DNA from: an uncultured delta proteobacterium
Lineage (GTDB): Bacteria > Desulfobacterota > Desulfuromonadia > Desulfuromonadales > JACZKF01
Assembly (NCBI GenBank): GCA_963848425.1
Contig: CAWKDO010000005.1
Span: 82,403 to 146,402 of the forward strand
Reading direction: 5' to 3'
Length of the DNA stretch: 64,000 nt
The notes beneath the pieces were generated by a model, which was given only the letters and a program-made list of their open reading frames with translations, was not told the DNA's origin and searched no databases. Positions 61,102 through 63,190 of the stretch are shown in pieces (the first letter of the stretch is position 1; each line of letters starts with the position of its first letter). The position numbers and the translations under genes were made by a program.

Positions 61102-61443
61102 CTAGCGGCAGAAAGCTTGTTTGCCATCTCGCATCAAATTATAATTACCATCAAGCACAAAGCCATTGCGTCCATCTGGCAAACGAATTTTGTAAATGAG
61201 GTAATGTTTCACGTCCACGCATTCTGTAACTGGCACACTTTGGCCAGAGGACAATTCTGTCATCGCCTTAGGGTTGGGCCATGTCATGGCTTGTTCTTGA
61301 GTTGCATATACATGCACAGCATCTCCTGCAACCAACATCAAACCATTAGTTGAAAAAATAAGATGAACCGCAAGGGCTGCCCCAAAAGCAAGTAAGACTA
61401 ATGTCGTGACAATGATCATTGTTTTTTTCTTCACCGTGCCCAT
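61102..61443 (-). CDS. Membrane-anchored hypothetical protein, immunity-like position (SH3-like beta domain possible)
   Basis: N-terminal TM helix; overlaps upstream stop by 13 nt; ..YKIRLPDGRNGFV. Confidence 0.65.
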   Translation of the reverse strand: MGTVKKKTMIIVTTLVLLAFGAALAVHLIFSTNGLMLVAGDAVHVYATQEQAMTWPNPKAMTELSSGQSVPVTECVDVKHYLIYKIRLPDGRNGFVLDGNYNLMRDGKQAFCR

Positions 61444-62039
61444 GGTGCATCATCCCAAAAGCCCCGCGATGGACCTTCATAAAATTTTGAACCCTCGTAA
61501 TTAGGCGAGTTAAGCGAGTCGTTACCGATATTAACCGGAAAAAAAGAATCTGAAAAAGCTATCCCTGTCGCCGCTTCTAAACAGTCTTTGTGTGGATCTC
61601 CGCAGTTATTTGTAAATTTACCGTAATTCTTTTTTCGCTTTTCGTAACACTCAACCAGTTTCTTTTCTTGATCTGATGTAAGGTTAAGAATAGTACCAAC
61701 CCCAGAACGAAACCCCTTCTGCCGCTCAGCATAACTTAAAGCACTTTGATTAGTGTCCCATCCTCCTGGAGCCCAAGAGTAATTTGCTCCATTTACGTTT
61801 GAGGACACATGACCGAATGAAGATGTAGTCCAAGTTACTGGCTGCCAGACTATGATTTCTGTATAAAGTCCAAGGGGATCTTTAAAATTAACCGGATTAT
61901 TTTGAACATAGGAATAAACATTTGGCCCACCTTCCAAGCCAATCGGATCCGGCTCAATGAAACGAGCGAAGGCATTCCCACAATAGCAGACAAACACGAG
62001 CAAGAGCGGCAAAAGAGTTCTAATCTTGAACGCAGACAT
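61431..62039 (-). CDS. Signal peptide + RHS-associated core motif + permuted papain-like (DUF4105-like) tip
   Basis: ..GNAFA|RFIEPDPIGLEGGPNVYSYVQNNPVNFKDPLGL then FGHVS..NNC; GGAGG RBS. Confidence 0.8.
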   Translation of the reverse strand: MSAFKIRTLLPLLLVFVCYCGNAFARFIEPDPIGLEGGPNVYSYVQNNPVNFKDPLGLYTEIIVWQPVTWTTSSFGHVSSNVNGANYSWAPGGWDTNQSALSYAERQKGFRSGVGTILNLTSDQEKKLVECYEKRKKNYGKFTNNCGDPHKDCLEAATGIAFSDSFFPVNIGNDSLNSPNYEGSKFYEGPSRGFWDDAPWAR

Positions 62040-62050
62040 ACTTACCCTCC

Positions 62051-63190
62051 TTACTGATTTGATTTCGCACGGCTGACGGTTTCAAGATAACGAATCATTT
62101 GGGCTTTGTCCGGTTGACGCCAACCAAGTGCCTCTGCTTTTGAAAACCAAAGTTCATTCTGCTCAGATAAGTGCTGAAAGAATGGCCTTTCATTTACGGG
62201 TATATCTCTTGGCGTCGGGTACTTGGCCGCGAAATGTTTATCGATGAGGCGTGCATAGGCACTACCCTTTCCGAGGATAAGTGCCACATTCTTGGGGTAA
62301 AAGGGGAGTACGGCATCCGCAATTGCTAACATTTTTTCAGGCGCTTGTTTTTCTGAAAAATTCTCAGCCAGAACGGTCGCCATGACGGCGGCTGTTTCTT
62401 TTTTCGTAAGCTTTTGCAAGTAAATCCCGTTGGCGATGGCCTCATCGGTCATCGGCATTTGCTGCCGATACCATGCATCCCTGGTCGGGTTTGCCCCGCT
62501 TGTCGCTTCGAGGTTGTACGTGATGCCCGTTTCGGGCTCGGTGTATTTCACGAGAATATGCTCTGGCGCTGTAGAGGCCGTTACATCAATGCCGAGGCGC
62601 TGGCCAAGTACGATGAACAGAAAAGGCATGCTGATGCAATTACCTTTCTTCGAGGCTAAGTAATTGGGTAGAAGCTTGTTTTTGATCTTGGTGCCTGGGG
62701 GATCATCGAAATCGTAGTGATATACCTCGTACCCGTTCCATGGGCCTTTTTCGTACAAGTATTTTTTGAGAGCGAGCAGGTTGTCATTACTTGAGGGTCT
62801 TTGACCTGCCATGGCGCGTATCTGTGCCACGATGTCGTCAATCTGTTTCAGGTTGGTATCGATGTTAATGGTGGGATCGATCATTTTATCGATAGTCAGT
62901 TTTATTCTTGCAAGGTCCAATTGGCTTTCCGGTTGCTGGAGGATAGCCCTCATGCGCTTGGCTTCAGACAAGGCTGGAATCTTTTGCTCAAATGGCGAAC
63001 CATTCGATTGCGCCTGCGCAACCGACAGGCAACCTACAATTAGTAACTGGAAGCTAACCAGAATTGTGGCTCGAAAAATGGTTATACGGCAGATTTTCCG
63101 GGGCAAATTAGAAAAACGCCGCCGCAACCAGCATCCTTGATGCTGATCGCAACGGCGTCGCCAAACTAACTTGAGCGTCCTGCCCTTCAT
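62051..63190 (-). CDS. Exported transglutaminase-like (SirB1/Transglut_core2-type) protein
   Basis: L..KKGNCISMP.L...LGQRLG, APEHILVKY, NLEAT; hydrophobic leader ending AQA; start uncertain. Confidence 0.8.
   Translation of the reverse strand: MKGRTLKLVWRRRCDQHQGCWLRRRFSNLPRKICRITIFRATILVSFQLLIVGCLSVAQAQSNGSPFEQKIPALSEAKRMRAILQQPESQLDLARIKLTIDKMIDPTINIDTNLKQIDDIVAQIRAMAGQRPSSNDNLLALKKYLYEKGPWNGYEVYHYDFDDPPGTKIKNKLLPNYLASKKGNCISMPFLFIVLGQRLGIDVTASTAPEHILVKYTEPETGITYNLEATSGANPTRDAWYRQQMPMTDEAIANGIYLQKLTKKETAAVMATVLAENFSEKQAPEKMLAIADAVLPFYPKNVALILGKGSAYARLIDKHFAAKYPTPRDIPVNERPFFQHLSEQNELWFSKAEALGWRQPDKAQMIRYLETVSRAKSNQ

Follow-up and report, generated by a model that had tools for sequence, protein, structure and literature searches.

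A putative exported RHS-tail toxin encoded with an immunity gene and a transglutaminase-like partner in an uncultured delta proteobacterium

Relation to known toxin systems

Classical Rhs/YD toxins (Rhs proteins of type VI secretion, such as Tse15, RhsA and Tse5; the Sec-dependent WapA; TcC of ABC toxins) carry a two-aspartate DPxGL core motif ahead of an exchangeable toxin domain, here called the tip, and an immunity gene comes after it. Toxins of this rearrangement hot spot (RHS) type are taken to depend on a large YD shell, which conceals the toxin and also builds the protease that releases it. The subject of this report is a three-gene cassette in a stretch of 64,000 nucleotides (nt) from an uncultured delta proteobacterium (contig CAWKDO010000005.1; the whole stretch is called the window below), in which the same core motif stands ahead of a tip in a toxin of only 202 amino acids (aa), compared with more than 1000 aa for classical Rhs. 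Unlike the classical proteins, the cassette toxin is without YD repeats, shell, N-terminal plug, PAAR or clade domain, and its signal peptide lies 5 residues ahead of the first DPxG. The cassette also has a separate partner gene, whereas long RHS loci are without one (0/57 in one set of loci and 1/27 core-only loci in another). The very same tip and immunity cassette is carried by classical long RHS proteins. On sequence evidence, the cassette is a horizontally acquired three-gene polymorphic toxin unit of diderm bacteria, with its genes placed as follows.

62051-63127, minus strand: exported transglutaminase-like/tetratricopeptide repeat (TPR) partner, 358 aa from TTG 63127 (PF13369, homologue alignment, model)
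61431-62039, minus strand: pre-pro-toxin gene, 202 aa (open reading frame, TIGR03696 match)
61102-61443, minus strand: immunity gene, 113 aa, with a 13-nt overlap with the toxin gene (open reading frame, co-occurrence with the tip)

The layout recalls the MafA-MafB-MafI loci of Neisseria, where an exported accessory protein is followed by a signal-peptide toxin, conserved in its N-terminal part and variable at its C-terminus, and then by immunity, and where no dedicated secretion machine is encoded. Only the gene order is shared. The conserved part of the cassette toxin is an RHS tail rather than DUF1020 (a Pfam search of the toxin found no DUF1020/MafB domain), and the accessory protein is of the transglutaminase/TPR kind rather than a MafA lipoprotein. 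Another system for comparison comes from Zhang et al. 2012 (PMC3482391), whose section 19 describes RHS toxins that are exported by Sec and in which an inactive transglutaminase domain is fused ahead of the RHS repeats; a peptide-binding or anchoring role is proposed there for that domain. The signal peptide, the transglutaminase-fold module and the RHS-derived delivery are common to both. Unlike the toxins of Zhang et al., the cassette has its module as a separate protein that keeps its catalytic triad in 79-80/80 homologues and is apparently active, and its toxin has no repeats. Within the literature covered, which included the accessible text of PMC3482391 and bioRxiv 10.1101/2021.10.19.465003 and excluded supplements and subscription journals, we found no description of toxins made of a signal peptide and an RHS tail or of a transglutaminase-like partner for them.

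The toxin gene and its RHS tail

The toxin reads as three consecutive parts, which are listed here together with the signal for its translation and the candidate catalytic residues.

62045-62050, minus strand: ribosome-binding site GGAGGG of the toxin gene, 6 nt ahead of its ATG (read in the sequence)
61965-62039, minus strand: signal peptide, residues 1-25, ..GNAFA then RF (hydrophobicity and conserved junction)
61866-61964, minus strand: RHS-core tail propeptide, residues 26-58, RFIEPDPIGLEGGPNVYSYVQNNPVNFKDPLGL, with D31 and D54 (TIGR03696, PDB alignments)
61434-61865, minus strand: toxin tip, residues 59-202, permuted papain-like (NlpC/P60 superfamily) hydrolase (model and structural matches)
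61811-61809 and 61604-61602, minus strand: candidate catalytic residues of the tip, H77 and C146

An initial annotation of the window, made from the sequence alone, had described a 202-aa open reading frame (ORF) with its own GGAGG ribosome-binding site and no YD repeats, and this description holds. The GGAGGG lies at 62050-62045 and the ATG at 62039, with an 11-nt gap to the stop codon of the upstream gene (62051-62053); Pfam returns no RHS or YD-repeat match for the ORF, which is too short for a YD shell. The N-terminus, MSAFKIRTLLPLLLVFVCYCGNAFA and then RF, has the basic n-region, hydrophobic core (mean Kyte-Doolittle value of 3.1 over 10 residues) and AxA site expected of a Sec signal peptide. 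A lipoprotein was considered and rejected, as there is no lipobox ahead of the AxA site.

Residues 24-58 match TIGR03696, the RHS repeat-associated core, with an E-value of 2.5e-12 and 47.1 bits (cut-off 32.5). The match covers only positions 42-76 of the 76 in the profile, so the complete core domain is not present. The earlier claim of a Sec signal fused directly to the RHS core thus stands for the signal, whose ..AFA is directly ahead of the core sequence, and has to be narrowed for the core, which is represented by its last 33-35 residues and not as a whole. The cleavage motif DP(I/L)GxxGG..Y..D(P/S)xG(L/W) is present as DPIGLEGGPNVYSYVQNNPVNFKDPLGL with both of its aspartates, D31 and D54, which are spaced by 23 residues; relative to the motif in PMC11461821, where both aspartates are described as essential for Rhs self-cleavage, the spacer has one extra residue. 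Several cleaved RHS/TcC cores end at the residue that aligns with L58, and cleavage is therefore predicted between L58 and Y59. The aligned core ends in the PDB are these.

4o9x_A: 2157-2191 of 2191
8cp6_B: 1088-1121 of 1121
6l7i_G: 631-664 of 664

Across 72 family members, D54, Y44, P49 and G57 of the tail are invariant (72/72), and at least 90% have D31. At two loci, L041 and L067, the signal peptide is joined to the second half of the tail only (..Y..NP....DPxGL) and the first aspartate is missing.

Fold assignments for the tip and for the partner were made with VIA-align Z-scores and, for menin, with Foldseek probabilities as well; Foldseek against the PDB gave no match at E ≤ 0.001 for either model. 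The tip is modeled with a predicted local distance difference test (pLDDT) score of ~90, and its structural matches are TseH (6v98, Z 9.9), YiiX (2if6, Z 9.8) and a Bacillus cysteine peptidase (3kw0, Z 9.1), with the next match at 7.0. H77 and C146 are invariant in an alignment of 27 sequences, in agreement with the papain-like His..Cys tip that had been read from the sequence. TseH, a Vibrio cholerae type VI secretion system (T6SS) effector, and YiiX are permuted NlpC/P60 proteins that share the fold of the tip over 127-130 aligned residues, including the order of His before Cys. Their sequence identity with the tip is 11-12%, and the tip is delivered by a Sec signal rather than by a T6SS. 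No Pfam family matches the toxin at E ≤ 0.001, with only noise at E ≤ 1, and the TseH family PF25218 is not matched. The tip is probably a cell-wall hydrolase.

The transglutaminase-like partner

Three features bear on where the partner begins and on whether it could be an enzyme.

63112-63271, minus strand: dispersed element of ~160 nt, adjoining the partner gene on its 5' side (repeat copies in the same genome)
63116-63158, minus strand: 20-bp hairpin with T-run, terminator-like, within the 5' extension of the long partner ORF
62638-62636, 62560-62558 and 62509-62507, minus strand: candidate catalytic residues of the partner, C164, H190 and E207

The initial annotation had an exported transglutaminase-like protein with Cys-His-Glu residues 11 nt upstream of the toxin gene and started it at 63190. 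Its nature is upheld by a match to Transglut_core2 (PF13369; E-value 8.6e-10, 38.7 bits against a gathering threshold of 23.5; residues 118-225 of the 383-aa ORF), and its start is unlikely. The frame is open up to 63202, with an alternative start at TTG 63106 (351 aa). Since the hairpin and the dispersed element cover the 5' extension and homologues begin ~25 residues ahead of the AxA site, TTG 63127 or TTG 63106 is more likely to be the start than 63190. The predicted signal peptide of the partner ends ..SVAQA and is followed by Q.

The triad is kept almost without exception (Cys 80/80, His 79/80, Glu 80/80), and the mean column identity in an alignment of 19 homologues is 44% across phyla. 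In an AlphaFold2 model (pLDDT 80.7) the Cys lies at a helix N-terminus and two neighboring strands carry the His and the Glu, an arrangement known from papain-like enzymes. The structure closest to the model is menin (3re2; Z 14.1, root-mean-square deviation 4.3, 242 residues, model residues 51-347), followed by a match at 9.9; a transglutaminase (4xz7, Z 9.4) and TglA (9crn, Z 8.6) are matched as well. Menin has the same build as the partner, a transglutaminase-like core with TPR-like helices, and PDB entry titles record that its pocket binds short peptides. Human menin is without the catalytic Cys according to PMC10318531, whereas the partner keeps it. The same 2023 survey states the function of bacterial Transglut_core2 proteins as unknown. 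The partner is not a SirB1 equivalog (NF008188, 20.1 bits against a cut-off of 391) and, unlike Escherichia coli SirB1, it is exported. When the partner profile was run against PDB sequences, the only matches were to dynamin, at chance level. The possibility that the partner is an immunity protein was rejected, as the partner stays constant while tips change. About 20 partner homologues of 424-458 aa, along with P0123 and P0169, have an insertion of ~100 residues (alignment columns 135-240) that separates the signal peptide from the conserved body.

These results raise the question of whether the partner could be a true transglutaminase or transpeptidase, which instead of serving as a chaperone or protease would use the propeptide to join the toxin covalently to a carrier in the envelope, for instance a lipoprotein, peptidoglycan or vesicle cargo. 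An invariant Cys-His-Glu on a transglutaminase core, the similarity of the model to 4xz7 and TglA, and the need for some carrier to leave the periplasm all point in this direction, as does the anchoring role that PMC3482391 proposes for the transglutaminase domains of its Sec-exported RHS fusion toxins. The same paper describes those fused domains as catalytically inactive, however, and no conserved Gln or Lys stands out in the invariant propeptide columns of our family. Longer, fused relatives of the partner were also sought, and none was present among 5535 candidates, which is weak evidence. On balance we regard such an attaching role as quite unlikely.

Recurrence of the pair

The link between partner and toxin was followed across 80 genomic loci chosen by similarity to the partner gene alone. 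At 70/80 of these loci, the next gene is an ORF of 165-312 aa with a hydrophobic N-terminus and the RHS-tail motif (E<1e-3); a strict motif scan caught 38/80, and a hidden Markov model built on those raised the count to 70. The distance between partner and toxin genes ranges from -25 to +43 nt in 71 pairs. The ten misses consist of 2 contig ends, 2 loci without an ORF and 6 with no match or a weak one, and in 4 of these 6 tblastn locates the tail motif at another place in the locus. Conserved neighbors other than the toxin gene, secretion genes included, were not found at the partner loci. L006 and L080 have two toxin genes with signal peptide and RHS tail in tandem behind one partner gene; the second starts ~1.0-1.3 kb downstream, an arrangement that can be likened to the spare-cassette arrays of other polymorphic toxin loci.

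Two samples drawn from the toxin side show that the pairing is specific to the short form. In metagenome loci selected by the toxin tip (n=60), a transglutaminase-like gene is upstream in 3/3 short forms and 0/57 others; 21 of these 57 have 100 to >1166 in-frame RHS residues upstream, long-RHS scaffolds having been counted by in-frame upstream length. An RHS core is present in 94 of 401 genomes sampled from one order, and just 4 matches, in 3 genomes, span the signal-peptide part as well. Among 30 loci of this sample, the partner is found at 3/3 full matches versus 1/27 core-only matches, and that one is distant. The family is therefore rare per genome (3/401 in this order). It is also spread across many diderm lineages, which by record titles include Alpha-, Beta-, Gamma- and Zetaproteobacteria, Desulfobacteraceae, Myxococcota, Gemmatimonadota and Acidobacteriota. 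A database of 1.84 billion cluster representatives was queried with a profile that joins the signal peptide and the tail, and 131 of the best 150 are short proteins with the motif right after an N-terminal hydrophobic segment; these 150 reach an E-value of 3e-18, and the family is larger. The junction in these 131 is mostly AxA followed by RY or RF, as it is in 45/45 sequences of one toxin alignment.

The initial annotation had proposed that a transglutaminase-like gene accompanies a polymorphic toxin system of a distinct kind, exported by Sec and without a shell, and it named three doubts about that proposal, none of which has been borne out. The N-terminus shares its AxA-R(Y/F) junction with 131 of the best 150 representatives, as a signal peptide would; the pairing recurs at 70/80 loci, with tips in 59 clusters, and follows the short form (3/3 versus 1/27 and 3/3 versus 0/57). 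The remaining doubt was that the ORF might be what is left of a long RHS gene, either as a decayed remnant or as an orphaned C-terminal cassette, with its signal peptide arisen by chance and its neighbors unrelated. Such an origin would account for the retention of only the last 35/76 positions of TIGR03696 and for the fact that the same tip and immunity cassette ends long RHS proteins (21/60 loci with at least 100 in-frame residues upstream, and L162). It does not sit well with an intact ORF that has its own GGAGG and ATG, with a junction that keeps its position in 131 of the best 150 representatives and in 45/45 aligned sequences, or with the partner gene preceding the ORF in 70/80 loci. The host genome (3.54 Mb in 12 contigs, estimated completeness 54%) also holds no parent gene that we could find, since RHS_repeat (PF05593) is absent from its contigs and the single RHS-core match in this ~54% complete genome is the ORF itself. 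A T6SS sheath gene was likewise not found in the same incomplete assembly. We consider an origin as a remnant barely credible, and very probably the cassette represents a real, distinct, partner-linked and shell-less family of RHS-derived toxins.

Exchangeable tips and their immunity genes

The variability in tips and third genes that one expects of polymorphic toxins, and that the initial annotation had suggested looking for, is evident: 72 family tips fall into 59 clusters, 107 tips from the best 150 representatives of the database census fall into 70 clusters, and the third genes differ between loci. Pfam assigns tips to Tlde1 (5 cases), YkuD (2 cases), TseH, M23, NLPC_P60, M15_2, M15_3, M91, Tox-GHH and CDI_toxin_EC869_like, and in one scanned subset it has no match for 28 of 30 tips. 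By sequence comparison the family is a polymorphic-toxin family, with a conserved N-terminal part, unrelated C-terminal domains and an adjacent immunity gene that varies.

The third gene of the cassette had been described as a small membrane-anchored gene overlapping the toxin gene, and it fits that description with its 113 aa, 13-nt overlap and hydrophobic N-terminal segment, which could be a membrane anchor or a signal. Nothing in Pfam or NCBIfam matches it significantly (SH3_3 at E 0.005 is below the cut-off). Homologues of it stand directly 3' of the same tip in 26/60 metagenome loci, mostly behind long RHS genes, with up to 77% identity, on the same strand and with start positions between -105 and +168 nt relative to the toxin stop; the same pair of tip and immunity gene occurs in L162, a long-RHS case. 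By this comparative criterion, the third gene is the cognate immunity gene, which accompanies the tip on either scaffold, and its product is predicted to be anchored in the inner membrane and to face the periplasm. Third genes vary among the loci, and 42/70 have a hydrophobic N-terminus. Both nuclease tips (L060 and L065) are paired with third genes that have none, and no cell-wall-enzyme match occurs among the 28 loci whose third gene lacks it. Since nuclease and cell-wall tips differ in this way in the N-terminus of the third gene, immunity appears to be located where the tip is expected to act.

A diverged alphaproteobacterial subfamily of 266-312 aa (L040, L042, L045, L051-L053, L055-L058, L060, L064-L066 and L071) has a tail of the form ..F(I/V)xPDxxDPTxPGVGTNRYAYSxNDPxNxxDPxG... 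In the two members with Pfam matches, L060 (Tox-GHH at 111-185) and L065 (EC869-like at 202-308), there are 50-115 residues between tail and nuclease domain, and this segment could serve for entry or translocation.

Free exchange of tips allows the tail to be viewed in another way, as a leftover stretch of DNA homology that acts as a handle for tip swaps with RHS loci, in which case the partner would act independently, for example as a co-effector or envelope-modifying helper. Tips are common to long RHS genes, the swap point is exactly at the tail, the tail is predicted to be disordered, and some members have lost half of it (L041 and L067) or the Pro of DPxGL (L010, L050 and L078), all of which would suit a mere handle. 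Two findings argue for a role of the tail at the protein level instead. The residues of the protease motif are kept even in the very diverged alphaproteobacterial versions, where DNA homology would be lost. In addition, tips vary freely (59 clusters) but the partner goes with the short form that bears the tail, which leaves the tail as the sole constant feature with which a partner could co-evolve. We therefore hold the handle explanation to be unlikely.

The compartments of toxin and immunity protein bear on another alternative, that the cassette is a selfish periplasmic addiction module whose toxin stays in the producer and whose immunity gene hinders loss of the DNA that carries it. The unit is small, self-contained, horizontally moving and without secretion genes, and the toxin and 42/70 third-gene products are predicted to share a compartment, the periplasm. 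However, the tips match interbacterial weapons (Tlde1, TseH, Tox-GHH and the EC869-type contact-dependent inhibition toxin), exported nuclease tips with non-exported third genes (L060 and L065) better fit re-entry into cells, and addiction leaves the conserved enzyme partner unexplained. Addiction is in our judgment very unlikely, and delivery between cells is the likely purpose.

A proposed mechanism and its weight

We lean toward a reading in which the cassette encodes an exported RHS-tail toxin, its immunity protein and a partner that substitutes for the YD shell. As sequence comparison shows, gene 2 specifies a signal peptide for Sec and signal peptidase I, then the 33-residue RHS-tail propeptide and then the exchangeable toxin domain. 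Both the partner and the toxin would be exported by Sec and meet in the periplasm, where the partner would take over from the missing shell by recognizing the propeptide, the one part of the toxin that is conserved. It might hold the propeptide so that self-cleavage after L58 occurs, or it might cut or transfer the propeptide with its own cysteine; either way, the tip would be matured or handed on. The freed tip would most likely attack the cell wall of neighbors that lack the immunity protein. That the partner may bind, process or carry the propeptide is suggested by the co-occurrence of the two genes, the invariant triad and the menin-like fold, and we put the chances that it acts on or through the propeptide as about even. 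The most specific version, in which a menin-like periplasmic cysteine enzyme reads the 33-residue tail as a universal tag, cleaves or transfers it, and in this way arms and exports many toxins along a shell-free pathway, is offered tentatively, as a possibility with the balance somewhat against it.

A number of points weigh against this proposal. The RHS protease is not known to work outside a shell. The propeptide is predicted to be disordered in isolation (pLDDT <50 for residues 21-55). L041 and L067 are without the first DPxG half of the tail and L010, L050 and L078 have DRxGL for DPxGL, and these variants therefore fit strict two-aspartate self-cleavage poorly. The signal-peptide call is based on hydrophobicity and conservation, and the census of short forms (131/150) relied on a criterion scripted by ourselves. 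With a genome that is ~54% complete, the absence of long RHS or T6SS genes is weak evidence. Lastly, both proteins lack an outer-membrane component and conserved secretion genes are absent from the neighborhood, a gap in the account of delivery to other cells.

Genomic setting

The cassette sits in a region that differs from its surroundings both in composition and in its distribution among relatives.

60950-63500 (approximate), no strand assigned: low-GC islet with the three-gene cassette (composition profile and related-genome comparison)
60987-61026, minus strand: terminator hairpin with U-run at the 3' end of the cassette (RNA fold -31.6 kcal/mol, z -6.8)

In the composition profile, GC content is ~40-52% in the islet (60,950-63,500) and ~58-70% in the flanks. 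In a comparison with 20 related genomes both flanks find matches, and the islet has none save for one of 64 nt. The dispersed element directly 5' of the partner gene has a promoter-like box (TTGACA-N17-TAAAAC) at one end and the 20-bp hairpin with T-run at the other. At least 5 more copies with 70-80% identity are present in the same genome, and partial copies occur in two related genomes. The other copies in the host genome are the following.

C12:149378-149538
C2:2685-2849
C1:8424-8571
C11:2097-2244
C5:205794-205951

No Rfam family matches the element, and no downstream gene is common to its copies; by appearance it is either a small RNA gene in multiple copies or a miniature inverted-repeat transposable element. 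A 76-nt direct repeat with 89% identity is formed by window positions 63344-63419 and C5:146547-146620, the latter ~145 nt past the window end, and it brackets a YajD-like HNH gene at 63598-63966. There is no tRNA near the cassette or the 76-nt repeat. A second short GC dip, to 47-52% within surroundings of 60-65%, lies at window positions 56150-56600.

Implications

If the pair works as proposed, it would be a compact and modular route by which Gram-negative bacteria deploy many toxin domains, cell-wall enzymes and nucleases alike, and it would supply a minimal system for the study of RHS-type cleavage. The proposal would also give bacterial Transglut_core2/SirB1-like proteins a first function, and one that is testable. 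It would further mean that the tail of the RHS protease can function, or be acted upon, with no cage around it.

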